In this document: positions 3,086 to 18,297 of the stretch, piece by piece | How positions within the stretch are numbered: position 1 is the stretch's first letter | Layout: each line of letters begins with the position of its first letter | Source: a virus | Taxonomy: Duplodnaviria; Heunggongvirae; Uroviricota; Caudoviricetes | Virus record (IMG/VR): IMGVR_UViG_3300028962_000002 | Strand: one strand, 5' to 3' | Length of the DNA stretch: 27,476 nucleotides | The notes under the pieces: generated by a model | Told to the model about the DNA's origin: nothing | What the model saw: only the letters and a program-made list of their open reading frames with translations | Databases searched by the model: none | Made by a program: the position numbers and the translations under genes

Positions 3086-3615
3086 CGTTTTATCGCAATC
3101 CTCAGTTGTTGTTTCAGCGCGGATGCCAGTTCTCCGGGCAGGCGTTCACGCCGGATACGGTCAACATTCTCATCAAACGCCTGTTTCAGTGGGGCCGCCA
3201 TCGGGATTTTCACCACATCAATAGGGTAACGGTTTTTCCCGGCCACACGCTGCATGACATGCCAGCGACCGTTTTTTAATCGCTGAATGAATGCCCGCTG
3301 ATACCGATGCTGACCGGCTTTAAGTATGCTGTTCGGACGACGGCCCAGCATCCTGATCCCCAGCTTAATCACTGGAAGATCACCGCGGTTAACGATAATT
3401 TTTGCGTTCGGATTTCTGACCGTCGCCCGTTTCAGTCTGGACCGTTCCTTAACCAGTTTCCGGCGTACCTTTGTCTCCCGGGCAACCTGTGATGAAGACT
3501 GATTAATCGCCGTTGTGGCCACGCGGTTAATCGTCATTGCTGAAGCCGCCGGAATGGCGTTTTTACGAACCCGGCTCAGATTATCAATCGCCTGATCAAG
3601 CCCTTTTATCGCCAT
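3082..3615 (-). CDS. Z: Tail completion protein gpZ
   Basis: 177 aa; MAIKGLDQAIDNLSRV...FIQRLKNGRWHVMQRVAGKNRYPIDVVKIPMA matches lambda gpZ. Confidence 0.9.
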   Translation of the reverse strand: MAIKGLDQAIDNLSRVRKNAIPAASAMTINRVATTAINQSSSQVARETKVRRKLVKERSRLKRATVRNPNAKIIVNRGDLPVIKLGIRMLGRRPNSILKAGQHRYQRAFIQRLKNGRWHVMQRVAGKNRYPIDVVKIPMAAPLKQAFDENVDRIRRERLPGELASALKQQLRIAIKR

Positions 3616-9106: not shown

Positions 9107-11018
9107 TCACTCCTCCGGACAGCTTCGCTGCCAGTTCTTTAAGGGTTGGCCGGGTCGTCTCTTCTTCCCGGGATTTTGCCAGTACAGCCAGATCAAGCTG
9201 CCAGCGTTGCACGGACACACGTAATGCCGCGTAGGCATACACCAGGCAGTCCAGCGCTTCGTTACGCCGCTTTTTGTTATCCCACAGCAGACGCATCTTT
9301 CCTTTTTCCCACTTCTCCACAAGCTCTTCCGCGACCAGTTGCTGCGCCTCTGTCTGCGAAAAAATCTCCGGATCATCAGGAAAACGGATGGCATACGACG
9401 TGGCTTCATCCGCAGGCGTGGGCTCGGCTTTCATACGGGCATAGAGAATTTCTTTTGCGGTGTCCGTCCCCACTTCACACAGATAAACGCCCCGCTGATT
9501 GCGGGTTTTCGGCATGGTGATCACCGGCTTGCCATAGACAGACGCGCCTTTTACCGGCAGCACACGGAAAACACCGTGTTTTTTTGACCTCTGGTAGACG
9601 ATTTCACCATCGATCCCCCCGGTGTCCCAGCAGACACGGGAAATGGTCATTTCGGTGCCATCCGCATGGCGGTATTTTTTGTTGATCGCCGCATCCACAC
9701 GTAACAGCGTCTCTTCCTCATCAGGACGCCCCATAATGATGATTTTATCCACCAGAAAAGCTTCCTCTCCCGGTGCCCATCCCCAGACATACATCTCAAA
9801 ACGGTTTCGCTGCGAGTCAATGCCCGCCGTCAGATAAACCACCCGGGCAGGCACCGCCGCCGTGTAACGCACAACCTTATCCATCAGCACCTGGTGATCG
9901 AGTTTTTCGCCCACGGCCTCTTCCCAGGTCTCGCCCAGCGTGGTGTTCACAAAGGTTTTCAGGCCGTTGGGATCTTTCAGTGCATCCAGCCAGTCATAGA
10001 CTATCTGTACCCAGGTGGTGAACGGACTGTACGCTGTCCAGATATGGAACGTGATGGAGCGCGGCGGCGGAATTTCATTATCCGCGGCGCTGAAAAACGT
10101 CAGACCGTCACGGGTCCACATCCCCGTGTTTTCACAGATCCACCGCCCGTTGCTCTGGTCAAGCTCAGACTGATGGATCACGCAGCCATGATGTTCACAG
10201 AGGTAGAAAACGCTTTCGGGGCTGTCCTTCTCCCATTTAAGGCCAAAAGGCGTGGATTCATCGCCAAATTTCAGATACTGCTCCTCCCCACAGTGTGGGC
10301 AGGGCACATAAAAACGCATGAAATGCGCCGACTCGTTGGCCGCTTTTTCGATCTGGCAGGTGCCTTTGATTTTAGGCGTCGAGCCGCGAATGGATTTGGG
10401 CCATACAGAGCCCTCAATACGTTTATCCCCAAGCAGGGTTGGCGAACCCTCTTTTTCGACATCCGGTTCGAACGAGGAAAGTTCGTCATAGCAGACCACG
10501 TCCACGGATTTTTCACGGTAGTTTTTGGCGGCAGCGCCGCCCAGGCACCAGAAACCCACACCCGATGAAAAGCGTTTCAGCGTGAGGGTATTGTCACGAT
10601 GTTTACGCCCCAGCCATGGAAAAAGGTCTTTCAGACATGGCACATCCCGAATCGTCGCCTCCACGTGAGACTTCATAAAATCTTCAGCGGCAGAATCCGT
10701 GGGCTGAAAAAGCAGACTGTTTCGGGATTTATGCTCAATAAAATACCCGACCACCCCCAGCAACATCTTTGTATAGCCAACACGGGCAGATTTAATCAGA
10801 TTAACAGTCCGGATCTGATCATTCCCCATGCTGTTCATGATGGCGATCTGGAACGGCAGCGTTTTCCATTCTCCCTCACCATATGAAGATTCTTTAGGCA
10901 GATAATAATTTTGATCAGCCCATTCAACTGGCGTCACCGGCAATGCCCTTATCAGGGGCTGTAATGCTGTTGTGACAGCACTCATCATATTATTCAGTTG
11001 TTGCTCTGATATATTCAT
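9090..11018 (-). CDS. A: Terminase large subunit gpA
   Basis: Start taken at MNISEQQLNN (ATG 11016-11018) by alignment to lambda gpA MNISNSQVN; WADQNYYLPKESSYGEGEWKTLPFQ, FMRFYVPCPHCGEEQYLKFGD, WTAYSPFTTWVQIV motifs match; overlaps the Nu1 3' end. Confidence 0.96.
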   Translation of the reverse strand: MNISEQQLNNMMSAVTTALQPLIRALPVTPVEWADQNYYLPKESSYGEGEWKTLPFQIAIMNSMGNDQIRTVNLIKSARVGYTKMLLGVVGYFIEHKSRNSLLFQPTDSAAEDFMKSHVEATIRDVPCLKDLFPWLGRKHRDNTLTLKRFSSGVGFWCLGGAAAKNYREKSVDVVCYDELSSFEPDVEKEGSPTLLGDKRIEGSVWPKSIRGSTPKIKGTCQIEKAANESAHFMRFYVPCPHCGEEQYLKFGDESTPFGLKWEKDSPESVFYLCEHHGCVIHQSELDQSNGRWICENTGMWTRDGLTFFSAADNEIPPPRSITFHIWTAYSPFTTWVQIVYDWLDALKDPNGLKTFVNTTLGETWEEAVGEKLDHQVLMDKVVRYTAAVPARVVYLTAGIDSQRNRFEMYVWGWAPGEEAFLVDKIIIMGRPDEEETLLRVDAAINKKYRHADGTEMTISRVCWDTGGIDGEIVYQRSKKHGVFRVLPVKGASVYGKPVITMPKTRNQRGVYLCEVGTDTAKEILYARMKAEPTPADEATSYAIRFPDDPEIFSQTEAQQLVAEELVEKWEKGKMRLLWDNKKRRNEALDCLVYAYAALRVSVQRWQLDLAVLAKSREEETTRPTLKELAAKLSGGVNGYSR

Positions 11019-11499
11019 CGAGTAAATCCGGTAATTTATCCCCCGCCCGCGCACACTGATTTGCCCCCTTCGCAATAAGGGTTTTCAGATGGTCAAGATG
11101 GCGCGGTGTTAAATCAGGAAACTGTCGCTGCATGGATAAAGGGATGGAATCAAGCGTACTGGATAACGCCATTGCCAGCTTGCTGAGGGCAAAAATACAG
11201 AACCCGGTATCAATAAGTTTTCCTTTTGACACCTCATTTTTTAACTGCTGTGTAACAGCCTGTTCTGCTGTCAGTTCCCATCTGGCAATAAGCAATTTCT
11301 CCTCATAGTCGTCTTCGCTATCGCCATCAGGCACATCGTTTTTACTTCTTCTCAGATACGATATGTAAAAATCGCGCCAGGCATCCAGATCCAGTTGCCC
11401 TCGCTTATTCGATATCGGGGCACCCGGCAATTTCTGCAATCTGCGAAGCTGGCGATCGGTCAGACTTAAATGCCTGGCAACTTCAGTCTGCGTAGCCAC
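10990..11499 (-). CDS. Nu1: Terminase small subunit Nu1
   Basis: C-terminal half (...DTGFCIFALSKLAMALSSTLDSIPLSMQRQFPDLTPRHLDHLK...LLDEYI) matches lambda Nu1; N-terminal HTH region diverged; apparent GTG start directly abutting a GAGGTGAGGA purine tract, so the exact start is uncertain. Confidence 0.85.
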   Translation of the reverse strand: MATQTEVARHLSLTDRQLRRLQKLPGAPISNKRGQLDLDAWRDFYISYLRRSKNDVPDGDSEDDYEEKLLIARWELTAEQAVTQQLKNEVSKGKLIDTGFCIFALSKLAMALSSTLDSIPLSMQRQFPDLTPRHLDHLKTLIAKGANQCARAGDKLPDLLDEYIRATTE

Positions 11500-11540
11500 T
11501 CCTCACCTCGCAAAAACTCTCACTTCACAATCACAACAAA

Positions 11541-11646
11541 ACCGGTCATGTCCGGCTTACATGTCTATTTTTTGTGCATGTCCGGTTCACAGAAGACCTC
11601 TTTTTTTATTTTTCATATAGTTAACTTGAAGAGAAACCGGACATGG
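11541..11646. promoter_or_regulatory. cosB-like terminase binding region: three copies of a CCGGACATG motif with an AT-rich segment between them
   Basis: Motif at 11636-11645 (accggacatg), inverted at 11577-11586 (catgtccggt) and 11546-11555 (tcatgtccgg); AT-rich block 11600-11630; sits between cosN and the Nu1 start, as cosB R sites and the IHF site do in lambda. Confidence 0.6.
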
Positions 11647-11682
11647 TTCCCGGAAAATTTTCATAAATAGCGAAAACCCGCG

Positions 11683-11694
11683 AGGTCGCCGCCC
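11683..11694. other. cosN 12-nt cohesive end (reverse complement of lambda GGGCGGCGACCT)
   Basis: Window sequence aggtcgccgccc; flanking tcataaatagcgaaaacccgcgaggtcgccgccc is the reverse complement of the lambda left end GGGCGGCGACCTCGCGGGTTTTCGCTATTTATGA. Confidence 0.93.
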
Positions 11695-11842
11695 CGTAAC
11701 CTGTTGGATCGACGGAAAGGACCCGAAAACGAGAATAATTATCACTTACAGCAAGAATCGAATCTGATCTATTATGGTGCTTGCTATTATGTGCCGGCAC
11801 AAGTGCGTCGTTTACCGTCATTTCACACAGAGGCATCATCAA

Positions 11843-12094
11843 ATGAAAATCAGAAATATTCTCGCTATCTCCCTTGCAACATCATCCTTCAGTTGCCTGG
11901 CATTTAAATCCTCGCCCAATGTGCTACCAGGACCAACGAATCAACTAACTGCGGTAGAAAGTAAAATTATCGGACATTTTTATGCCCCACACAGTGCATT
12001 ACCCGGAACAACCATCACAGGGACATGTGACGCCTCCCCCGTCCCGGGATGCACCTGTCCGTTTTGTACTATGCTGCGTAGCCAAAACCGATAA
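11843..12094 (+). CDS. Hypothetical small Cys-rich protein with N-terminal signal-peptide-like segment
   Basis: ATG preceded by GAGG; MKIRNILAISLATSSFSCLA hydrophobic leader; opposite strand to the late genes, in the bor-like slot next to cos. Not recognised. Confidence 0.4.
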   Translation: MKIRNILAISLATSSFSCLAFKSSPNVLPGPTNQLTAVESKIIGHFYAPHSALPGTTITGTCDASPVPGCTCPFCTMLRSQNR

Positions 12095-12155
12095 CATCCG
12101 CATTTACCTGGTATTACATGATGAGTTCACGCAGCGACTGATAGAGGAAGGAAAG

Positions 12156-12335
12156 ATGGTTAGTAAAAGCAAGGCGCATTGCCGCCGCATGCTGCAGGCA
12201 TTGCAACAGACGAGAGCAGGTATTTTTGACCAGTTGGAAAACTGCCAGCATACTTTGCCCGAGTATATCGCCATCTCATCGGAAACCAGTGCAACTCTTA
12301 TTCATCGGGTTCCACCAGAGAAAAAGAAGAAATGA
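12156..12335 (+). CDS. Hypothetical 59-aa protein
   Basis: Strong RBS AGGAAGGAAAG directly before the ATG (MVSKSKAHCRRMLQALQQ...); followed by a hairpin at 12342-12367. Not recognised. Confidence 0.45.
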   Translation: MVSKSKAHCRRMLQALQQTRAGIFDQLENCQHTLPEYIAISSETSATLIHRVPPEKKKK

Positions 12336-12341
12336 ACAGTG

Positions 12342-12367
12342 AGGCGTTGTGTGGCATACAACGCCTT
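12342..12367. terminator. Candidate bidirectional intrinsic terminator
   Basis: Stem aggcgttgt / acaacgcct with a 7-nt loop; T/C-rich tract after it on the plus strand and a T-rich tract after it on the minus strand (downstream of the TonB-C lipoprotein gene). Confidence 0.4.
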
Positions 12368-12457
12368 CTTCCATCATTCCTCGTCAGCCATGACAAAAAT
12401 ATAACCGCTGGCTCTTTCATTTTTCTCCTGCGTCCAGCCCCTCTCTACCTGGAAGCA

Positions 12458-12784
12458 TCAAGGACGTGACGGCGTAAAGATAAATTGTCTCTTCACTCCC
12501 TGACAGGGGCGATTCTTTTCAAATCGCCATTTCGCCATGGCCTTCACCACTTCATCACGAAACAAATTATGAGGCTCTGAGCGGAGAAAAACGATCCGTG
12601 TCACAGTCCCATCAGCACCAATATCGAACTTAACCTCAACCAGCCCCTTGATATAATTTGCTGCAGCATATTCCGGATATCGTGGATACACCGTCACTAA
12701 TTGCCGGGGCTCATCAGCTTTTTGCTGCGAGCATCCCACTGCCAGGACAGATAACAGAAAAAGTAGTAAAAGGCGTCTTTTCAT
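12458..12784 (-). CDS. Lipoprotein with TonB C-terminal-like domain
   Basis: Start MKRRLLLLFLLSVLAVGC has a lipobox (LAVGC) and an AGGA RBS; mature part VTVYPRYPEYAAANYIKGLVEVKFDIGADGTVTRIVFLRSEP...FRDEV...AMAKWRF resembles TonB_C domains; downstream of Rz/Rz1. Confidence 0.65.
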   Translation of the reverse strand: MKRRLLLLFLLSVLAVGCSQQKADEPRQLVTVYPRYPEYAAANYIKGLVEVKFDIGADGTVTRIVFLRSEPHNLFRDEVVKAMAKWRFEKNRPCQGVKRQFIFTPSRP

Positions 12785-13094
12785 TTTTATTCCTACGGGT
12801 CTTATTCTGACAATATATCCTGTGTTCCAGACTGCCACATCACCACATCCTGTGCCATTATCTGACTCACATTACATACATCGCATCGGGATACAGTAGT
12901 AGCACTTTCTGTAATACAGCTTCCTGTTTCTTCCACCATCGCACCGGGATAAACCCGCGAATCATTAACGCGGTAAAAACCCGGTGTGCATCGTTTTTAA
13001 TTATCCCCGCACACTCGCGCAGAGGAGTCTCCCTGTCGGGCTGCGGTCTCTGTTAATGAGGGAATATAGCGACGATACGGCGCATCAACAAAAC

Positions 13095-13568
13095 TTATTT
13101 CAGGCACTGAGTGCGGATATAGTCCTGTGCCCCTTCCAGTTGCTTGTGCATCGTCATCAGCCGCTCTCTGAGGGTGAAATAATCCCGTGTAACGGTGTCT
13201 GCCAGTTGGGGGCCGGTTGCATTATCCACGCCGGAGGTGGTGGGGGCTTCACGCACGGAGCCTGGACAGGTGGCGTTGATCCGCAGGCGCTTACGACCAG
13301 CGGCAACGTCAGCGCGAAGAGTTTCATTTTCAGCTCTCGCATCGGCTAATTCCCTCGAGTATTTTGCATCGAGCGCAGCAACATCGCGCTGGCGCACCTG
13401 CATATCAGTAATGGTTGCGTTCGCCAGCTTCAGTTCACTGGCTTTGTTATCGCGCTGCGCTTTGTAGGTAATCGCGTTATCACGGTAATGGTCTGTTGCC
13501 ATCCACAGCGCACCACAGGCCACCAGCAGAATAACGATAAACGCGGAAAGCATTCGGTTTATGTTCAC
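13095..13568 (-). CDS. Rz: Spanin inner-membrane subunit Rz
   Basis: [52 protein letters not shown]...[19 protein letters not shown] is near-identical to lambda Rz. Confidence 0.93.
13157..13342 (-). CDS. Rz1: Spanin outer-membrane lipoprotein Rz1, embedded in Rz in the +1 frame
   Basis: ...[47 protein letters not shown] matches lambda Rz1, including the proline-rich core and lipobox. Confidence 0.88.
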
Positions 13569-13696
13569 CCCAGCAACCCCGACGAAGACAACATCATCCA
13601 GGCCATGGAAAGAAAAAGAGCAACCAGCATTAGTGAAAATGAAATGCCGACAATTACACAGAGGATCTTCGCCAGCGTTATGAGTTTGTCTGACAT
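13565..13696 (-). CDS. Hypothetical 43-aa single-pass membrane protein, translationally coupled to Rz
   Basis: ATG at 13694-13696 with a GGGAGGA RBS; [35 protein letters not shown] has one hydrophobic helix; its stop overlaps the Rz start. Confidence 0.5.
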
Positions 13697-13710
13697 GCTT
13701 AATCCTCCCT

Positions 13711-13857
13711 TCACGATTTCAACGCAATGACCAGTTTTGCCAGCCCATACAGCATCGGGGACACAGCAACACCGACCGCCACCCACTTAATGGCAAAAGC
13801 CAGTGCTCTGCTGATGTCATCAGTTACAGGCGCTTTCAGTTCAAGGCCATTTTTCAT
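13711..13857 (-). CDS. Hypothetical 48-aa protein with C-terminal hydrophobic segment
   Basis: Start [11 protein letters not shown]... chosen for its GAGG RBS; lies between endolysin and Rz; the longer upstream in-frame start (13926) lacks a clear RBS. Confidence 0.35.
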
Positions 13858-14049
13858 AGTCAACCTCAACAGAATTCGTTTACACTTCGCCATGTTCTCC
13901 CTTGCCTTACTCAAGGTCAGAAACACAAAACCTCGCTTGGTGCCAACAAACGGGGTTTTTACTTTTATTCACTTACGTTTCGCCAGTTCGCAGGATTTCG
14001 TGTTATCCGCCCGCGTGGCCATTCCTCATTTTTCAGCAAAATATTCTGC

Positions 14050-14583
14050 TTATCTGTCGATACCCCAGCACGCCAGCGCGCTCTCCTGGTCACGACGGGA
14101 TACCTGACCGTAACAGTTGTTTGAACGAATACGGCAGTCTCTGCCACCGTCCTTAATCCACCAGCGAATCGCTTCGCAGGCACCTTTTCGATCACCAGCA
14201 TTAATTCGTCTGTAAAACGTCGACGGGAAACACTTACCGGGACCAATGTTGTACGGACAGAATGACGCGATCCCCGCTTTCTGGGGTTCGGTCAGCGGCA
14301 CTCTGATGTTTTTCTCCACCCACGCCAGCGCTTTATCACGCTCAATGGCGTTAACCTGGTCGCATTTTTCCTTCGACAACTTCATGCCCGGAACGACAGG
14401 TTTGCCATCCACCATGATGGCACCACGGCAGATGGTCCAGATACCTGCACCATCACGGTATGCCGTGGTGTGGTTGCCTTCCTTTTCATCCAGAAACTGG
14501 TCGAGAATGTCAGGCGCAGGCGCACCAGCGGCAATCAGCGCCAGAACGGCAGCCGACAGGCCGTATTTGATTTTGGTGTTCAT
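14050..14583 (-). CDS. R: SAR endolysin (T4-lysozyme-like, GH24) with N-terminal signal-arrest-release segment
   Basis: N-terminal Gly/Ala-rich weakly hydrophobic segment YGLSAAVLALIAAGAPAP; catalytic region DEKEGNHTTAYRDGAGIWTICRG (Glu, then Asp, then Thr); P21 R-like architecture directly after the pinholin. Confidence 0.88.
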   Translation of the reverse strand: MNTKIKYGLSAAVLALIAAGAPAPDILDQFLDEKEGNHTTAYRDGAGIWTICRGAIMVDGKPVVPGMKLSKEKCDQVNAIERDKALAWVEKNIRVPLTEPQKAGIASFCPYNIGPGKCFPSTFYRRINAGDRKGACEAIRWWIKDGGRDCRIRSNNCYGQVSRRDQESALACWGIDR

Positions 14584-14619
14584 GGATATATTAAATATTC
14601 AGCCGCTGTCCCTGGCCCA

Positions 14620-15513
14620 CTAAATACGCACTTTAAGATAAGTCAGCCCCGGATGAAGCCAGTAAGCCGGCCCTTTTTTAAAGGGTGGAGTATTAAAATC
14701 ACGAAGAAGAGCCTCCCGCACAATTGCATCCTTATCAGCACCACTGGCCAGCGCTTCAATCTCAGCGGCTACCTGAAGATATCCCATGCAACGGCCAACG
14801 CGCTTCATCAGCCCCTGCTTTTTATTGTTCTTCAGGTAATCAATGGCAAATTCAATGAGCTCCTCACTGTGCTGGTGCGATGGAGGTGTTACTTTCCCAT
14901 TTTCTGAGATGGTTATTTTCCCAGCATCACCGGATACAACAAAGGATGGCCGGTTACACTCCCATTCCGGGTCACTGAAATTATCATTATGAATACTGAA
15001 ACACTCTGCGAGATTTCTGCTCATCACTTTCCGACAATAATCGTCAAACGCAGCAAACTGCTTTTCATCGCCAGAAGGCACCAATATCGACCATTTCTTA
15101 TTCAGCTCAACGACGTAGCTCTCCAGTTTTTCAATACGTGATTCAACATCATCTTTTTCTGACCGCAGTGTTGACGGCGGCATCTTCAGAGAACAAGTAA
15201 TTCTTCCCGGTAGCTTTCCTTTGTAGGTTATCAACACATCCTGCGCCTCTAAAATTACGGGGCGCTTTTCCGGCAACGGTTCGTTCCATTCACATAACCC
15301 GGCAGCAACATCCATGAAAAACTGCTTCGCCTGCTTTTTCGCCTCAGCTTCGTAAAACTCCAGCGTGGCACCTTCAGTACGGTCAAGACTAATCGCCACA
15401 TCTGGCAACAACAGCGACGCTTGCCCGTCACCTTCCGACTTCACAGTAACAGTAACCTTATCCCCGTAATTATTTATCCCCTTAACAACCAGTTCATATT
15501 TTTTATTCATCAC
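14620..15513 (-). CDS. Hypothetical 297-aa soluble protein inserted between holin and endolysin
   Basis: ATG overlaps the holin stop (coupled); long uninterrupted frame; no transmembrane segment; no motif recognised by eye. Confidence 0.7.
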   Translation of the reverse strand: MMNKKYELVVKGINNYGDKVTVTVKSEGDGQASLLLPDVAISLDRTEGATLEFYEAEAKKQAKQFFMDVAAGLCEWNEPLPEKRPVILEAQDVLITYKGKLPGRITCSLKMPPSTLRSEKDDVESRIEKLESYVVELNKKWSILVPSGDEKQFAAFDDYCRKVMSRNLAECFSIHNDNFSDPEWECNRPSFVVSGDAGKITISENGKVTPPSHQHSEELIEFAIDYLKNNKKQGLMKRVGRCMGYLQVAAEIEALASGADKDAIVREALLRDFNTPPFKKGPAYWLHPGLTYLKVRI

Positions 15514-15514
15514 T

Positions 15515-15730
15515 TTACTCTCCCCGCGCCGCCTTACGCCGGTCCTCTTTGATTTTGAAATACAGGTTAGTCAGATATGTCAGCAGCCCAAACAGCAGAC
15601 TCCCCAGCACGCCTATTGCCGCCCACTGAGACGGGGAAACCCTGTCCAGCAACTGCAGGAACCAGTAGCCCGTTCCCACCGCTGACGTGGTGTATGACAC
15701 ACCTGTTGTGATTTTTTCCATCTGGTACAT
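15515..15730 (-). CDS. S: Pinholin (phage 21 S-like class II holin), dual-start motif MYQM
   Basis: [71 protein letters not shown], 71 aa, colinear with phage 21 S71 and with the same C-terminal tail; a second Met at codon 4 corresponds to the S68 start. Confidence 0.9.
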
Positions 15731-16037
15731 ACCCCGTCTCCCGTTATCCGGAAGCTGACAACAATAAAAAAGCCACCAGTTAAGTACTGATGGCTCTGAT
15801 AACTCATGCAGGCGTCTCAGACGACCCACTGACACTACCGGTGAGTTTAACGATACCTTCCATTTGACTGGCTCACTTTTTATGATGATGCCGGTGCATT
15901 TATCTCCAGCACCAGACTTTCTATCTCAACGCCATACGTTGCATTTTTGGTAATATCCGTCAGCGTCAGTGCATTTAGTCCCACTGCCAGACCGTCTTTT
16001 ATGGCCTGGAATGCCGGGCCAGTACGATGACGTAGTA

Positions 16038-16241
16038 TCACTCCGGCTCAGTTGCACCACTGACCACCACATCACCTTCTGCTGCAATCGCCTGCATCAG
16101 GGTATAAGGGGTTATGGCCACCGGACTACCAAACGGCTGCCAGCCCTCTTTCAGTTTATGTGTCAGCTTTTCCGCAAGATCTGACGGCGACGCCGCCCTG
16201 ACAACATCATAGTGTTTAAATGCCATGGTTCTTTCCACCAT
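16038..16241 (-). CDS. Small hypothetical protein (DUF1737-like), late operon
   Basis: 67-aa ORF ...MAFKHYDVVRAASPSDLAEKLTHKLKEGWQPFGSPVAI...; the family name is from memory; true start may be the internal MAFKHYD. Confidence 0.55.
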   Translation of the reverse strand: MVERTMAFKHYDVVRAASPSDLAEKLTHKLKEGWQPFGSPVAITPYTLMQAIAAEGDVVVSGATEPE

Positions 16242-16486
16242 CTGAAAAATGATTCTTTAAAATACCTGACATGTAATACAGAAAAAACACAAAACCATAC
16301 CTTAAATAAAAACCTCATCATCAAGCAGATATGCATGGATAAACTACAAGACGAGATATAAACCACCCTGCATTTAAATAAACAATAAACAACATCAGAA
16401 AAATAATTCTGCTCTATGGTTTACAATCAAAAATATCATTTATACTTTTCAGAACATCACCAGCAAGGCATAAACAAGGAAACTAA

Positions 16487-16822
16487 ATGAAGTGGATTGT
16501 GATTGATACAGTTATCCAGCCATCATGCGGAATATCTTTTTCAGTCATATGGAGTAAAATAAAATTAATAATCTGGTATCAATCGGATGCTTTCTTACCT
16601 CCTGAAAGTATATTTACACTGACTCACACAGGTATCATGCTCAATAACAAAGTGCTACCTGTAACCATTTACAACGTAGTACCATTCAATAAAACATTCT
16701 GGAATTTAATCAAAAACAGCCAGGAATGCCCTACAAATACAGATAACGTATTGAATGAATGCTTTAATAACCGTTGCACTCTGCAAATATGTCCTTATGG
16801 GCTAAAACAACAAAGTCCATAA
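16487..16822 (+). CDS. Hypothetical protein in an AT-rich moron island, opposite strand to the late genes
   Basis: AAGGAAA RBS before the ATG; region 16250-16850 is strongly AT-rich compared with the flanking phage DNA; 111 aa, Cys-containing. Not recognised. Confidence 0.5.
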
Positions 16823-16857
16823 GGAGTTTACTCACATCTGACAAAATCAATATAAAC

Positions 16858-16879
16858 AGCCCCTCCGGAGAGGGGCTGG
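16858..16879. terminator. Perfect 9-bp GC-rich hairpin (cagcccctc-cgga-gaggggctg), candidate terminator
   Basis: Stem-loop read directly; on the minus strand it is followed by a T-rich but interrupted tract (TTTATATTGATTTTG). Confidence 0.35.
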
Positions 16880-17178
16880 AGAGTGGCGCTATGTGCCATT
16901 GCATGGTGCCGGGTGCCTCCCGGTGAATTCAGTACCAGCACCTGAATCCGCGATTATCCCATATACCTACTCGCTGATTGCCCCTCCGCACAGGGGGATT
17001 CACCATGCCAGTTTCTTTTAACAAACTCCCCGCAAACCAGACAACAGTCAACCGCCTGAATTGTGAAGTATTTAAAAATTTCTCCCGCTAACTGATACCC
17101 GGCTAACAGTCTGGCGTTTTCTTTTTCAGCAACGGGAAAGCAACAACCACCACACCCACCAGCCGCCCATTTACCACA

Positions 17179-17206
17179 AATAAAAAAGCCTTCAGGACTG
17201 AAGGTG
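17179..17206 (-). terminator. Intrinsic terminator (minus strand) at the end of ORF 17192-17512
   Basis: Hairpin ccttcag-ga-ctgaagg followed on the minus strand by TTTTTTATTT; the ORF stop codon lies inside the stem. Confidence 0.55.
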
Positions 17207-17512
17207 TCTGTAACAACCAAACTGATAGTCTGCCAGACCCGCCATAACAAGCTGGGTCAGTATTAACTGGCAGCGTTCGCGTGAAAGGTAAGTATTCTGT
17301 GCAATCTCCCTGACTGTCGCCGGGTCGGTAACGCTTAATTCATTAAACACCACTCTGGCGGCTTCTGTCATATCCTGCTGTTTTAGCATGTCTTTTTCCC
17401 TTTTCCGGTTAACGTGACATACCAATAACTCTTGTCGAAAAAGCCGGCAAGCTGAAAGACCCGTATTCGCAACCACCAGCGCGTTTACTGTACTGACGCG
17501 ATTTTCGGACAT
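17192..17512 (-). CDS. Hypothetical 106-aa protein, first ORF downstream of the candidate late promoter
   Basis: ATG at 17510-17512 (MSENRVSTVNALVVANTGLS...); no clear RBS, the start abuts the U-tract of the upstream terminator. Not recognised. Confidence 0.45.
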   Translation of the reverse strand: MSENRVSTVNALVVANTGLSACRLFRQELLVCHVNRKREKDMLKQQDMTEAARVVFNELSVTDPATVREIAQNTYLSRERCQLILTQLVMAGLADYQFGCYRHLQS

Positions 17513-17540
17513 AAAAAAAACCACCTGGCGGTGGTTTTTT
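17513..17540. terminator. tR'-like intrinsic terminator just downstream of the Q-like gene (bidirectional A8-hairpin-T6)
   Basis: aaaaaaaaccacctggcggtggtttttt: 7-bp stem aaccacc/ggtggtt, loop tggc, flanked by A8 and T6. Confidence 0.6.
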
Positions 17541-17580
17541 CTTACTTTGCCATCACGTACAAAATCGGCAAAATATCAGA

Positions 17581-17618
17581 TTTATACGAAACATACGCGA
17601 TTTAATTGACTTTTGCAA
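17581..17618 (-). promoter_or_regulatory. Candidate late promoter (pR'-like): -35 TTGCAA, 17-bp spacer, -10 TATGTT, then -10-like TATAAA in the initial transcribed region
   Basis: Minus-strand -35 at 17613-17618 (inside the 3' end of the Q-like gene), -10 at 17590-17595, downstream TATAAA at 17581-17586; about 70 nt before the terminator. Assignment is by analogy with lambda pR'/tR'. Confidence 0.35.
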
Positions 17619-18297
17619 TATCTCGTCGTGAAAAGGTCGCTTTTTGTTGCGCTCTTATTTTCACGGAGCAAATCAAGGATTCTCTATCGAGGCGCTTAAA
17701 AATATCGCACATCTCACGCCAGTAGTTCGCATAATTATGGCTCCAGTTATCAGGCTTAACTCCACACAGTCTGGCAAGCTCCTGTCTCTGGTAGACCTCA
17801 CACCCGGTAACCCATCCTCTGACATCCTGTGCCGCCAGCCAGATCAACTTCTTCACACGCTCCAGCGTTTTCACTGCAATTTTTCTGGAGCCGGACTGAG
17901 TTTTAAATTCACTCCACCCCCACTGCGTTATCGCGATCTGATGCTCCCAGCAAATGTTTCCGCCATAACACCACAACAACCACGCCTTCTGATGTTCTTC
18001 CAGTTCCAGAACAGCACGCCGCCACGATGATGTTGCAAACTCAACAGGACTGACCAGCGCAATTGATGAGCCTTTCGCCAGTGATTGTTTACCCTGGATC
18101 GGGGGATTATCCCGCGTGATCATTTTTCCGGTTACCTCATCGCGGTAACGAATTTTTTTGCGTCTGTAACGCCCTGTATCGAACAGGGCATTTTCCTGCC
18201 AGGCTTCCAGCTGGCATTTTGTCGACCCACTGAGATCTGCAGTGGCAATCATGAGTTGCTCACGAACAAACTGTAAATACTGGTTATTCATGCACAC
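17602..18297 (-). CDS. Putative late-gene antiterminator (Q-like), assigned by position
   Basis: 231-aa ORF directly downstream of rusA and directly upstream of the candidate late promoter, terminator and lysis genes; no sequence family recognised with certainty. Confidence 0.5.
   Translation of the reverse strand: MCMNNQYLQFVREQLMIATADLSGSTKCQLEAWQENALFDTGRYRRKKIRYRDEVTGKMITRDNPPIQGKQSLAKGSSIALVSPVEFATSSWRRAVLELEEHQKAWLLWCYGGNICWEHQIAITQWGWSEFKTQSGSRKIAVKTLERVKKLIWLAAQDVRGWVTGCEVYQRQELARLCGVKPDNWSHNYANYWREMCDIFKRLDRESLICSVKIRAQQKATFSRRDIAKVN

Follow-up and report, generated by a model that had tools for sequence, protein, structure and literature searches.

Lysis timing sets the burst size and fitness of a phage, and for lambdoid phages the holin-endolysin-spanin scheme is usually regarded as complete. 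The locus analyzed here raises the question of what two extra genes do within such a cassette. It lies in the window, i.e. the whole stretch of 27,476 nucleotides of tailed-phage DNA that was analyzed, which belongs to an E. coli prophage. An original prediction, made from the letters alone, had described two extra small membrane-type ORFs between a SAR endolysin gene and Rz. We refer to the ORF next to the endolysin gene as ORF-A and to the one next to Rz as ORF-B.

The lysis cassette and its two additional ORFs

Both ORFs were found at the described place, on the minus strand, and each has a single hydrophobic segment (Table 1). The surroundings also agree with the original description, comprising genes for an S21-type dual-start pinholin, a DUF1327 protein, a SAR-like endolysin, and the Rz/Rz1 pair. 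S21-like variants from over 130 loci can be aligned with the pinholin. The N-terminal helix of the endolysin is weakly hydrophobic and rich in Ala and Gly (hydropathy 1.74), and a SAR domain is predicted. For Rz, the RefSeq start is ATG 13553, 12 nt from the nearest Shine-Dalgarno (SD)-like site; Rz alleles of other loci start with MNR..., which fits the MNINR... read from GTG 13568. Rz1 is conserved along with Rz in related loci.

Table 1. Features of the lysis region in the window
Feature	Position	Strand	Description
Rz (i-spanin)	13095..13568	-	Pfam PF03245 (E 2e-47), PHROG 13; opens at GTG overlapping the ORF-B stop
Rz1 (o-spanin lipoprotein)	13157..13342	-	Inside Rz, +1 frame; lipobox LVVSAC, proline-rich mature part
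ORF-B	13565-13696	-	43 aa; PHROG 4906; RefSeq WP_001280932.1 'hypothetical protein'
ORF-A	13711-13893	-	60 aa; PHROG 1115/4493/3246; RefSeq WP_001446668.1 'hypothetical protein'
Degraded antisense sigma-70-like promoter	13857..13886	+	Inside ORF-A codons 3-13; TAGTCA-18 nt-TACACT
Terminator-like hairpin	13926..13960	-, readable on both strands	A-run, 10-bp GC-rich stem, U-run; stem 13952-13934
Endolysin, T4-lysozyme-type	14050..14583	-	177 aa; PF00959 (E 2e-24), PHROG 7; RefSeq 'lysozyme'/rrrQ
Pinholin, S21-type class II	15515..15730	-	71 aa; dual start MYQM; RefSeq 'class II holin family protein'

A promoter scan found no coding-strand sigma-70-like promoter between R and Rz. The lack of an own promoter, the tight stop/start spacing, and the overlap or short gap (at most 14 nt) between ORF-B and Rz point to expression from the late operon, and the genes sit in the late lysis operon. 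Between R and Rz, a search of positions 11000-18000 against Rfam detected no RNA family; STnc100 at 16848-17037 was the single match above gathering score in this range.

ORF-B, a small peptide gene coupled to Rz

ORF-B contains one strongly hydrophobic helix at residues 11-29 (best 19-mer Kyte-Doolittle value 2.89) and is predicted to be a single-pass inner-membrane peptide with N-in/C-out orientation and a periplasmic tail of 10 residues. Its SD sequence, AGGGAGGA, is followed by the ATG 6 nt downstream and forms a duplex of dG -11.3 kcal/mol, the strongest among the cassette starts scored. The ORF-B stop codon TGA overlaps, within GTGA, the GTG that opens the Rz frame at 13568. The strong ribosome-binding site and the translational coupling to Rz that had been predicted were thus both confirmed. 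ORF-B has no Rz-family match, and the roughly 10 residues beyond its helix fall short of the long periplasmic coiled coil of an i-spanin.

The peptide matches PHROG 4906 over its full length (E 2.1e-23; residues 1-43 on profile positions 7-49 of 49), and a diverged copy from a cassette with a GH108-type endolysin matches the same family (E 1.6e-19). Of 19 distinct nucleotide alleles, 18 keep the frame open, and the remaining one reads through into a 65-aa product. The dN/dS ratio is 0.31 in frame versus 0.83 and 1.69 in the other frames, and residues K4, L5, S19, F20, M23, V25, W33, and L36 are invariant. Length and frame are retained even where the start codon has shifted (ATA with a new upstream ATG).

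Directly 3′ of ORF-B there is always Rz, or a lipoprotein gene in its place; in junction types ending at such a gene, the ORF-B stop and the following start overlap or are at most 14 nt apart. A specific partnership of ORF-B and Rz was considered but found no support, as 100%-identical ORF-B copies adjoin Rz alleles of only 59% identity and also a non-Rz lipoprotein. The free recombination of ORF-B alleles with different Rz alleles likewise argues against a specific contact between the two proteins. Several phage records leave ORF-B unannotated.

Ribosome profiling, by which the original prediction proposed to judge the ORFs, yielded a signal for a homologue of ORF-B only. XECs191 of E. coli O157:H7 Sakai was listed as a translated 'novel small gene' with predicted inner-membrane location (Huecker et al. 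2017, PMC5597208). It is a true ORF-B homologue, of the Stx-phage-type allele with a longer N-terminus (MMGWLMISDKL...). In LB, it showed an RNA RPKM of 30.0, a footprint RPKM of 12.6, a ribosome coverage value of 0.43, and a coverage of 0.55 (PMC5597208), a weak signal that comes from an uninduced lysogen and from the homologue rather than from the copy in the window. The same study assigned no function to XECs191 and did not mention its position before Rz (PMC5597208).

ORF-A, a conserved gene with two candidate starts

The longest possible ORF-A frame, from GTG at 13926 (the upper limit given in the original prediction), comprises 71 aa; the conserved gene is the shorter frame of Table 1, as in RefSeq. 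Its product is predicted to consist of a basic N-terminal helix, an acidic linker (APVTDDI), and a Gly/Ala/Ser-rich membrane helix at the C-terminus. An AF2 model (mean pLDDT 77.5) places helices at residues 2-15 and 23-59. The hydropathy of the membrane helix, 1.88, is similar to that of the pinholin helix (1.70) and of the SAR helix (1.74). ORF-A matches PHROG 1115 (E 3.7e-42) and PHROG 4493 (E 1.9e-28), whereas PHROG 3246 matches the C-terminal helix only.

The ORF-A frame is open in 43 distinct alleles, with a pN/pS of 0.22 versus 0.67 and 2.46 in the other frames. Divided by part, the ratio is 0.17 for codons 13-60 and 0.63 for codons 1-12, for which close alleles give weak evidence of constraint. 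In the family alignment P22, Y49, G50, and A57 are invariant, the small-residue pattern of the helix is conserved, and members at 34-50% identity retain frame and motifs. ORF-A and ORF-B are real genes, conserved and under purifying selection. Both are already catalogued (PHROG, RefSeq), though without a name or family description.

Initiation at a further in-frame ATG, 13857, would yield a product of 48 aa that starts with Met13. Both starts are preceded by SD sequences (dG -8.4 for ATG 13893 and -6.3 for ATG 13857), and the 60-aa form carries in addition a 12-residue N-terminal extension, MAKCKRILLRLT, with four basic residues. This is the layout of a dual-start lysis regulator, i.e. two in-frame starts, each with its SD, and more N-terminal charge in the longer form. 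The pattern Y-K-R-I-L-L/M-R-L-T of the extension survives synonymous codon changes, even at 34-43% identity, and the choice of the codons TAT-AAA is identical across the contexts examined. Met13 is present in all 29 relatives of the census described below and in most other family members; two variants (P0195 and P0227) have a different N-terminus and lack it. An SD-like GAGG or GGAGG before Met13 is retained even where the amino acids differ. ORF-A probably uses both starts and gives rise to two isoforms. Neither this apparent dual start nor the travelling hairpin described next was part of the original prediction.

A terminator-like hairpin and an antisense promoter-like site

The hairpin lies about 35 nt upstream of ORF-A. 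In the window, a G-to-A change introduces a C-A mismatch into the stem, and the energies are dG -12 on the minus strand (z -2.2) and -12.6 on the plus strand (z -3.05); an intact copy at locus L224 reaches -23.7 (z -5.4). The window carries a minority allele, found in 23 of about 190 loci. The hairpin stands upstream of ORF-A relatives in nine of ten contexts examined and shows three compensatory pairs; in the tenth, a Salmonella remnant (L258), a different structure precedes the ORF-A relative. As far as these sequence contexts tell, the hairpin travels with the ORF-A gene as a portable module.

The antisense -10 element mostly reads TATACT or TATAAT across alleles (counts: TATACT 146, TACACT 19). 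In the window the site is below the threshold of the promoter scanner, which did, however, pick it up at the corresponding position in L255 (10/12), L224 (9/12), and L254 (10/12). A transcript from this predicted promoter would enter the hairpin and cover the ribosome-binding site of ORF-A. Point changes in the window weaken the hairpin as well as the antisense -10 element.

Distribution and dispensability

Conservation across S21-type cassettes, which had been proposed as a check on the two ORFs, was extensive: among IMG/VR, phage, and genome loci gathered around homologues of ORF-A and ORF-B, 144 have the order holin-R-A-B-Rz and 39 more holin-R-(ant)-B-Rz. Of 5426 complete E. coli genomes, 1039 have both genes in the cassette and 1788 (about a third) have at least one of them, with up to 11 copies per genome. 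The Stx-converting phages sampled have ORF-B directly before Rz, and the genes are also carried by phages of the PhiR12 and PhiR5 series, which form plaques and were grown on E. coli K-12 and C. The A-B pair also occurs in an unrelated cassette, between the genes for a GH108-type endolysin (PHROG 315) and a small lipoprotein; the holins there belong to PHROG 198 and 217.

Of 29 diverse ORF-A relatives surveyed in a census, 18 showed the order endolysin, A-like gene, then spanin or lipoprotein. The endolysins at these junctions belong to PHROG 873, to PHROG 181 (two architectures), and to SAR T4-lysozyme-like, GH108-like, and R21-like types, the last three assigned by sequence likeness; some of the endolysins accompanied by ORF-A relatives have no SAR domain. 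ORF-A relatives thus follow at least five unrelated endolysin types, so that the module is not specific for P21-like cassettes. The spanins at the census junctions belong to PHROG 214 and 312, a different assignment from that in the window (Table 1). The endolysin-spanin junction is enriched for the ORF-A family, as random placement among roughly 30-60 junctions would rarely fall there. The other 11 relatives lie among tail and baseplate genes, with no lysis gene near within the flank examined; junctions of this kind are baseplate V/W, major-tail, minor-tail, and tail-fibre, and the Salmonella relatives are located 3′ of tail-fibre genes.

In Stx phages, the same R-Rz junction is occupied by the antirepressor gene ant, so this junction is also just a place that tolerates insertions. 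Mosaic boundaries were found on both sides of ORF-A and ORF-B. The ORF-A family is narrow, with 16 representatives among 1.84 billion proteins, and is present in 4 of 401 species representatives of the family of the nearest genome (G001).

The original prediction had placed both ORFs outside the minimal holin-endolysin-spanin set, and this holds: the gene of an 89%-identical endolysin in the Qin prophage of K-12 abuts a DUF2514-type spanin gene with neither ORF between. Because Qin has neither, ORF-A and ORF-B are dispensable. Lambda, too, lyses its host without genes of this type. The small Qin proteins YnfQ/R/S/U were considered as K-12 equivalents and rejected, as they are located elsewhere and Qin is without both ORFs.

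Homology and literature searches

Pfam (E<=1) and NCBIfam searches gave nothing significant for either ORF; the best Pfam match of ORF-B, DUF3930, failed the cutoff (E 0.08), and 18 family members had no Pfam match even at E<=10. Both ORFs were also without any match among the anti-phage defence models of PADLOC at E<=1. With the ORF-A family alignment, a PDB sequence search returned nothing significant and a profile search of genome contigs no confirmed locus. No homology to a characterised holin, antiholin, or releasin was detected for either ORF. A literature search by accessions, PHROG identifiers, and the phrase 'between R and Rz' retrieved no paper on the two genes.

Membership in the S21 pinholin family (PF04971) was dismissed, as no Pfam match was found and each ORF has one hydrophobic segment. 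A relation between the ORF-A helix and the second transmembrane domain (TMD2) of pinholins was likewise rejected, with an hhalign probability of 3% over 12 aligned columns against S21-type holins. What had suggested such a link was P0239, a database protein of 59 aa in which residues 1-36 of the holin are followed by the ORF-A tail; we regard it as a chimera, produced by deletion or in assembly at a short stretch common to both, W-x-A-[VI]-G-V.

Proposed role in the membrane step of lysis

Our preferred reading, held with moderate confidence, is that ORF-A and ORF-B are optional accessory inner-membrane proteins, which adjust the membrane step of lysis and are not required for it. The label 'lysis modulator' or 'antiholin-like', suggested by the original prediction, is thus one that we infer for both, and their membrane insertion and topology are predicted. 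Both proteins would be made late in infection and adjust the timing or sharpness of lysis triggering. The hairpin, facing the antisense promoter in most alleles, should limit stray expression of ORF-A in the lysogen. In both ORF-A isoforms, the weakly hydrophobic C-terminal helix would anchor the C-terminus in the inner membrane, where it may self-associate or pack against helices of other lysis proteins via the small and aromatic residues G41, S45, Y49, and G50. Through such packing, ORF-A could help or delay the collapse of the membrane potential, with the cationic long form as an antiholin-type inhibitor and the short form as the active species. With the energised membrane as a general target, we propose, the same module could work beside unrelated holins, endolysins, and spanins. 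ORF-B, if efficiently translated in coupling with Rz, would reach the membrane together with the spanin and might serve as a partner of ORF-A or as a helper of the spanin step.

A possible but doubtful alternative is that both ORFs are cargo genes ('morons') unrelated to lysis, which might, for example, block superinfection, alter the envelope, or counter host defence, the R-Rz site having been chosen since it tolerates insertion and guarantees late, strong expression. The position of ant in Stx phages, the ORF-A relatives at tail and baseplate junctions, the flanking mosaic boundaries, the lack of both genes in Qin, and the narrowness of the ORF-A family all fit this account. However, expression in the lysogen is unlikely with no own coding-strand promoter and a terminator upstream, there is no PADLOC match, and the enrichment at the endolysin-to-spanin junction is strong and extends to unrelated endolysin and spanin families; even a place among tail genes is compatible with a part in lysis, as lysis regulators encoded there are known (LysA2b of mycobacteriophage D29). 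It is improbable that ORF-A instead acts as the toxin in a unit resembling type I toxin-antitoxin loci, one that would serve prophage maintenance or abortive infection, not programmed lysis. A membrane-damaging peptide would then be silenced by a short antisense RNA reaching from the first ORF-A codons to the bidirectional hairpin. The small, hydrophobic product would suit this, and so would the promoter-like site (TAGTCA-18 nt-TATAAT or TATACT), which recurs in three separate contexts without a change of position, the terminator-like shape of the hairpin on both strands (better on the antisense strand), and the constant TAT-AAA codons. Yet ORF-A is intact in the window although promoter and hairpin are weakened; it is always co-oriented with the late operon and usually beside lysis genes, and the Hok/Gef, Ldr, Ibs, TisB, and other toxin families gave no Pfam match. 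Hok-type toxins have an N-terminal helix, whereas the helix of ORF-A is C-terminal.

Two further explanations have still lower probability. ORF-B might mainly serve as a leader whose translation supplies Rz with ribosomes by termination-reinitiation at GTGA, its peptide having little function. Its strong SD next to the weak one of Rz, the tight spacing, and its constant position immediately 5′ of Rz or of the lipoprotein gene replacing it would be expected of a leader, but the dN/dS of 0.31 and the invariant residues indicate selection on the peptide, frame and length are retained despite a moved start codon, and the spanin genes of Qin are translated without such a leader, as are those of lambda. 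We consider this quite unlikely. That the two frames are open by chance, in a spacer without coding function, is disfavoured as very improbable: they are short, match no Pfam or NCBIfam family, and several phage records do not annotate ORF-B, but frame-specific purifying selection, conserved SD sites, the retention of frame and motifs in members at 34-50% identity, and the Ribo-seq listing of the ORF-B homologue speak against chance.

Implications

The reading of ORF-A and ORF-B as accessory lysis proteins can be extended to a more speculative one, in which enterobacterial phages would have, in the ORF-A family, a portable fourth lysis component that has gone unrecognised, a plug-in timer; we put this forward only tentatively and think it rather doubtful. 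Such a timer would consist of the terminator hairpin, an antisense RNA for silencing in the lysogen (in most alleles), and a dual-start, C-terminally anchored micro-protein, whose short form would promote and whose cationic long form would restrain the collapse of the membrane potential. Acting on the energised membrane and needing no particular partner, it could be swapped between unrelated cassettes. In clusters of endolysin, A-like, and lipoprotein genes beside tail-sheath genes, the ORF-A-like protein might even be the sole holin, and ORF-B as well as other tiny peptides ending in ...RWW would be further lysis micro-proteins.

If the two genes are lysis modulators, they would join Lcc6, releasin, LydC/LydD, and ORF52, making accessory membrane micro-proteins a regular layer of lysis control, and would affect the speed at which induced prophages release their contents. 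If they are unrelated cargo, they would nonetheless point to a slot in which insertions recur and to a compact regulatory layout, in which about 150 nt accommodate a terminator, an antisense promoter, and a dual start.

Comparison with known systems

Dual-start genes that encode both holin and antiholin are known from lambda (S107/S105) and phage 21 (S71/S68), in both of which the N-terminus of the longer form is the more positively charged. Like these, ORF-A has two in-frame starts and a more basic long form. It differs from these holins in its single C-terminal helix (they have two or three) and in an extension of 12 residues instead of 2-3; its sequence is unrelated, and the cassette already has its own dual-start S21-type holin. 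LysA of phage P2 is a non-essential extra membrane protein that shifts lysis according to host and conditions. Its gene is located between those of the endolysin and the spanins, the same position as that of ORF-A and ORF-B, but LysA has several helices and the two ORFs one each. With hok/sok type I loci, ORF-A shares a gene for a small hydrophobic peptide, an overlapping antisense promoter-like site, and a bidirectional terminator; it differs in being co-oriented within a phage late operon, in having no family match, and in the degraded antisense elements of the window.

Lcc6 of the Shewanella prophage LambdaSo is a single-helix membrane protein of about 65 aa that is essential for lysis and acts at the holin step, so that this pinholin/SAR-endolysin/spanin phage needs a protein beyond the three canonical functions (bioRxiv 10.1101/2024.01.23.576932). 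Going by its published description, Lcc6 has an N-terminal helix and a cytoplasmic tail of 43 aa, in contrast to the C-terminal helix of ORF-A and the 10-residue tail of ORF-B, and its gene is far from the lysis cassette, whereas ORF-A and ORF-B lie inside it and relatives can do without them. In phage Mu, gp25 ('releasin', DUF2730) is a small membrane-tethered protein controlling the release of the SAR endolysin (PMC9239132). Neither ORF matches DUF2730 in Pfam; moreover, Mu is without a holin while the cassette in the window has a pinholin, and ORF-A relatives also stand beside non-SAR endolysins. LydC and LydD of P1 are non-essential extra membrane proteins that shift lysis in a host- and condition-dependent manner, LydD itself being a pinholin (PMC9025707). 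Neither these nor LysA has detectable homology to ORF-A or ORF-B. Together with Lcc6, releasin, and LydC/LydD, ORF52 of BSPM4 (PMC11657625) provides a precedent for a small accessory membrane protein that acts on a holin or SAR-endolysin system.

Organization of the lysis region

All genes of the lysis region are carried on the minus strand, and the endolysin (PF00959, PHROG 7) and the spanin Rz (PF03245, PHROG 13) were assigned using Pfam and PHROGs. The endolysin ATG is located 36 nt from the stop codon of the DUF1327 gene and has no Shine-Dalgarno (SD)-like sequence within 20 nt (14584-14603; duplex dG +0.4). A region upstream of the lysis genes (16848-17037, minus strand) strongly matched STnc100, an sRNA family of Rfam (132 bits, E = 8e-30).

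Features of the lysis region in the window
Feature	Coordinates	Strand	Remarks
S21-type holin	15730-15515	-	71 aa, dual start MYQM (translation, RefSeq)
DUF1327 protein	15513-14620	-	297 aa
T4-lysozyme-type endolysin	14583-14050	-	177 aa, N-terminal helix weakly hydrophobic and Ala/Gly-rich
Hairpin-bearing spacer	between endolysin and ORF-A	-	156 nt
ORF-A	13893-13711	-	60 aa
ORF-B	13696-13565	-	43 aa
Rz	GTG 13568 or ATG 13553, to 13095	-
Rz1	13342-13157	-	embedded in Rz
TonB-C-domain lipoprotein, then terminase genes	after Rz/Rz1	-

Conservation and translation of ORF-A and ORF-B

ORF-A and ORF-B are genuine genes of the late operon that are under selection and encode tiny predicted inner-membrane proteins; both are optional and mosaic. 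Among 166 locus copies and the window, ORF-B occurred as 19 distinct nucleotide alleles with identities down to 80%. The 43-codon frame was kept in 18 of these, the other reading through to 65 aa, and pairwise dN/dS was 0.31 in frame versus 0.83 and 1.69 in the other two frames. In Stx phages, the first codon is now ATA, with a new ATG placed either one codon or five to six codons further upstream (MISDKL... or MGWLMISDKL...), so that the frame is preserved through the start change. All 43 distinct ORF-A alleles were open, with a pN/pS of 0.22 across the gene (codons 13-60: 0.17; other frames: 0.67 and 2.46).

Both genes are already catalogued: in RefSeq as 'hypothetical protein' from identical E. 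coli chromosomes (ORF-A, WP_001446668.1, 60 aa; ORF-B, WP_001280932.1, 43 aa), in PHROG families of unassigned function (1115, 4493, and 3246 for ORF-A; 4906 for ORF-B), and, on the ORF-B side, as XECs191. Neither had a match in Pfam, NCBIfam, or PADLOC, nothing significant was found in the PDB with the ORF-A family profile, and a literature search returned no paper on their function. XECs191 (MMGWLMISDKLITLVKSLCVLVGISFLVMLVAIFFSTAWRVLTLSGLVG), a homologue of ORF-B, is among the novel small genes listed as translated in E. coli O157:H7 Sakai, and its product is predicted to be an inner-membrane protein (Huecker et al. 2017 supplement, PMC5597208). Its values in LB were an RNA RPKM of 30.0, a footprint RPKM of 12.6, a ribosome coverage value of 0.43, and a coverage of 0.55 (PMC5597208). 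The original prediction of two extra small membrane ORFs between endolysin and Rz hence withstood both observations that might have overturned it: the many open alleles and frame-specific selection demonstrate conservation, and a Ribo-seq signal exists for the ORF-B homologue, weak and from uninduced cultures.

ORF-B and its link to Rz

ORF-B contains a single, very hydrophobic segment (residues 11-29, Kyte-Doolittle 2.89). Its N-terminal flank has a net charge of +1, and the helix is followed by about 10 residues without charge, which predicts an N-in/C-out orientation. Invariant residues in a 21-sequence alignment were K4, L5, S19, F20, M23, V25, W33, and L36. The SD sequence of ORF-B (AGGGAGGA, 6-nt spacing, dG -11.3) was the strongest among the sites scored. 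The ORF-B stop codon, TGA, shares bases with the GTG of the Rz frame. In other Rz allele types, ORF-B is followed by the Rz ATG at a distance of at most 8 nt, and its stop lies within the ribosome-binding site of Rz. By these signals, ORF-B is firmly predicted to be strongly translated and coupled to Rz. A specific contact between the two proteins is unlikely, because their alleles combine freely with one another and ORF-B is also found ahead of a lipoprotein that is not Rz.

Starting from the GTG, Rz reads MNINR..., a better fit to the MNR... of the other allele type than the RefSeq form (MLSAF..., from the ATG), for which the closest SD-like site is 12 nt off. Judged by sequence, the RefSeq start of Rz is probably mis-annotated. 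The GTG start would put a positive charge ahead of the Rz helix.

Anatomy and putative dual start of ORF-A

ORF-A comprises a basic N-terminal stretch (MAKCKRILLRLT), a conserved acidic linker, and a long helix. An AlphaFold2 model based on the family alignment (mean pLDDT 77.5) showed helices at residues 2-15 and 23-59 joined by a loop. The C-terminal 22 residues are only moderately hydrophobic (1.88), much like the pinholin helix (1.70) and the SAR helix (1.74). P22, Y49, G50, and A57 are invariant across the whole family; invariants of the close family are F33, A34, I35, W37, A39, V40, G41, S45, L48, Y49, G50, A52, L54, A57, K59, and S60.

Two in-frame ATGs were found, one at 13893 (SD dG -8.4, spacing of just 2 nt) and one at 13857, corresponding to Met13 (GAGG, dG -6.3, 4-nt spacing). 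In distant homologues, with about 45-50% identity elsewhere in the protein, the extension keeps Y-K-R-I-L-(L/M)-R-L-T despite synonymous substitutions in its codons (ATT/ATC, CTG/CTC/TTG, ACT/ACC), and the most divergent members (34-43% identity) retain M-x-x-Y-[KRH]-x-x-F-R-x-R-L-S-M-K-D-G. Among close E. coli alleles alone, codons 1-12 gave a pN/pS of 0.63, which is weak evidence. Met13 was present in all 29 relatives of the census described below and in most other family members; it was absent from P0195 and P0227, two variants with a different N-terminus. An SD-like GAGG/GGAGG precedes Met13 even where the amino acids differ, e.g. in ...SVEAN-MKNG encoded by GTGGAGGCCAATATG. Conservation of the extension as protein, together with retention of Met13 and of the SD-like motif before it, suggests that both starts are in use.

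Hairpin and antisense promoter-like site

Nine of ten contexts examined had, at a distance of about 35-70 nt upstream of the ORF-A relative, an A-run followed by a GC-rich stem of 10 bp and a U-run; in the remaining context, a prophage remnant of Salmonella, the upstream structure was different. Alignment of nine such copies revealed compensatory changes in three pairs, and the hairpin resembles an intrinsic terminator on both strands. Inside ORF-A codons 3-13, a promoter scanner detected an antisense promoter-like site (TAGTCA-18 nt-TATAAT/TATACT), identically placed in three separate contexts (loci L255, L224, and L254). A transcript from this site, if made, would end at the hairpin and cover the ORF-A ribosome-binding site.

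Two point changes distinguish the window from the majority, one weakening the terminator hairpin and the other the antisense -10. The hairpin (13926-13960) carries a G-to-A change in its 3' arm (dG -12, z -2.2, versus -23.7, z -5.4, for an intact copy). Because codon 4 of ORF-A is TGT and not the majority TAT, the -10 (13881-13886) reads TACACT, which brings the site under the scanner threshold. Both changes occurred together in 18 of the 23 loci with the window hairpin allele.

Distribution and genomic contexts

The A-B interval had a match in 1788 of 5426 complete E. coli genomes (at least 80% of the interval in 1039), with as many as 11 places in one genome. Homologues of ORF-B came almost exclusively from Escherichia, and close homologues of ORF-A came mostly from Escherichia and Salmonella. 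When 1.84 billion representative proteins were searched with a profile, just 16 representatives of the ORF-A family emerged, and a six-frame scan gave matches in 4 of 401 species representatives of the family of G001, the nearest genome used for comparison. Plaque-forming PhiR12 and PhiR5 series phages, which were propagated on E. coli K-12 and C, carry both genes; in the K-12 prophage Qin, the gene for an 89%-identical endolysin overlaps its spanin gene, without small ORFs.

Of the loci collected around homologues of ORF-A or ORF-B in IMG/VR, phage records, and genomes, 144 showed the order holin-R-A-B-Rz (R, endolysin gene) and 39 the order holin-R-B-Rz. Those holin-R-B-Rz loci that were compared with annotated Stx-phage records have the antirepressor gene ant in place of ORF-A. 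A further 14 loci contained A-B without any S21, R, or Rz gene. These encode holins of PHROG 198 and 217, a GH108-type endolysin (PHROG 315), ORF-A, an ORF-B that has diverged to 60-67% identity but still belongs to PHROG 4906, and, in Rz position, a lipoprotein of PHROG 7528 with unassigned function. Rare arrangements included (i) a second, truncated ORF-A copy; (ii) a 28-aa ORF-A-like peptide (MSAEFIRAMAFSIRIVAIAVLVWAIRWW) replacing ORF-B; and (iii) Rz directly after ORF-A.

The PHROG 7528 lipoprotein (60 aa, lipobox LLVGC, mature part of about 30 residues, 2-3 Cys) takes the Rz/Rz1 position after ORF-A/ORF-B in L221-L224 (~3340-3522), L169, L167, and L171. In L221-L224, with two holins and a GH108-type endolysin, no spanin was recognized in the flanking sequence; spanin-like ORFs lie on the upstream side in L167. 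This lipoprotein may be an undescribed outer-membrane-disrupting factor. Tiny hydrophobic ORFs of 28-36 aa ending in ...RWW were observed in the place of ORF-B or before ORF-A relatives (L170, 2945-3032; L167/L171, 3277-3450; L263, 1352-1510), the 28-aa form matching the ORF-A PHROGs 4493 and 3246.

For a census, 29 diverse ORF-A relatives were identified using a remote-subfamily alignment, and their neighbors were typed by PHROG or by likeness to already typed proteins. In 18, the order was endolysin, A-like gene, spanin/lipoprotein, with SAR T4-lysozyme-like, PHROG 873, PHROG 181 (two architectures), GH108-like, and phage-21-R-like endolysins and spanins including PHROG 214 and 312. The other 11 occupied late-gene junctions without a lysis gene nearby (baseplate V/W, major tail, minor tail, and tail-fiber/fiber-assembly genes). 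Salmonella relatives retrieved by exact-protein look-up include tandem paralogues after tail-fiber genes; in a very common Salmonella prophage remnant, the A-like gene abuts Rz. In one Salmonella prophage (L249, 3305-3668), two tandem paralogues (64/47 aa and 55 aa) follow a SASA-domain tail protein and precede a DUF1353 protein, at the end of the prophage.

A compact cluster of a PHROG 181-type endolysin with PG-binding domain, an ORF-A-like gene, and two small lipoproteins was noted in L255-L257, L262, L265, L266, L268, L269, L275, and L276. It adjoins tail-fiber and tail-sheath genes in L255-L257, and a deletion in L265/L269 fuses the ORF-A-like gene to the first lipoprotein gene. As no other membrane protein is encoded near this cluster, the ORF-A-like protein could be its only holin. 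In a 59-aa predicted protein on a 554-nt metagenome contig (P0239), residues 1-36 of the pinholin are fused to the final 23 residues of ORF-A, with the junction at a short W-x-A-[VI]-G-V stretch common to both. Either a decaying prophage has lost DUF1327 and the endolysin by deletion, or the protein is a chimera of the assembly.

Possible role in lysis

On balance, anatomy and comparative context somewhat favor ORF-A and ORF-B being accessory membrane proteins of the lysis cassette that modulate the membrane step of lysis. ORF-A belongs to a portable unit found most often, not solely, at the endolysin-spanin junction beside non-homologous lysis enzymes. The case for a role in lysis rests mainly on this enrichment, and chance insertion is hard to reconcile with it because a phage offers some 30-60 gene junctions. 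The main rival explanation, cargo without a lysis role that uses permissive late-operon junctions, appears rather unlikely to us; it draws on the ORF-A relatives in tail and baseplate contexts and on ant at the same junction in Stx phages. A tail-gene position does not exclude a role in lysis: in mycobacteriophage D29, a lysis regulator is encoded downstream of the tape-measure gene.

The weakly hydrophobic, small-residue-rich helix of ORF-A, its cationic alternative N-terminus, the upstream terminator, and, in most alleles, the antisense element would fit a membrane-active protein barred from expression until late, a design that may parallel the logic of holin/antiholin pairs. We consider it very unlikely that ORF-A is type I toxin-like, and slightly less likely still that ORF-B is a leader ORF for Rz. 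For modulators of lysis, a generic target (the energized membrane or the packing of helices in general within holin rafts) would be more likely than a specific partner, because the module sits beside unrelated holins, endolysins, and spanins.

Comparison with known systems

Functional analogues exist, but our searches detected no relatives of ORF-A or ORF-B. The dual-start holins of lambda and phage 21 can be regarded as such analogues, as can P2 LysA. Lcc6 of LambdaSo, a membrane protein of 65 aa that is needed at the pinholin step, is likewise a candidate functional analogue. Comparable functions may also be seen in the Mu releasin gp25 (PMC9239132), P1 LydC/LydD (PMC9025707), and ORF52 of BSPM4 (PMC11657625).
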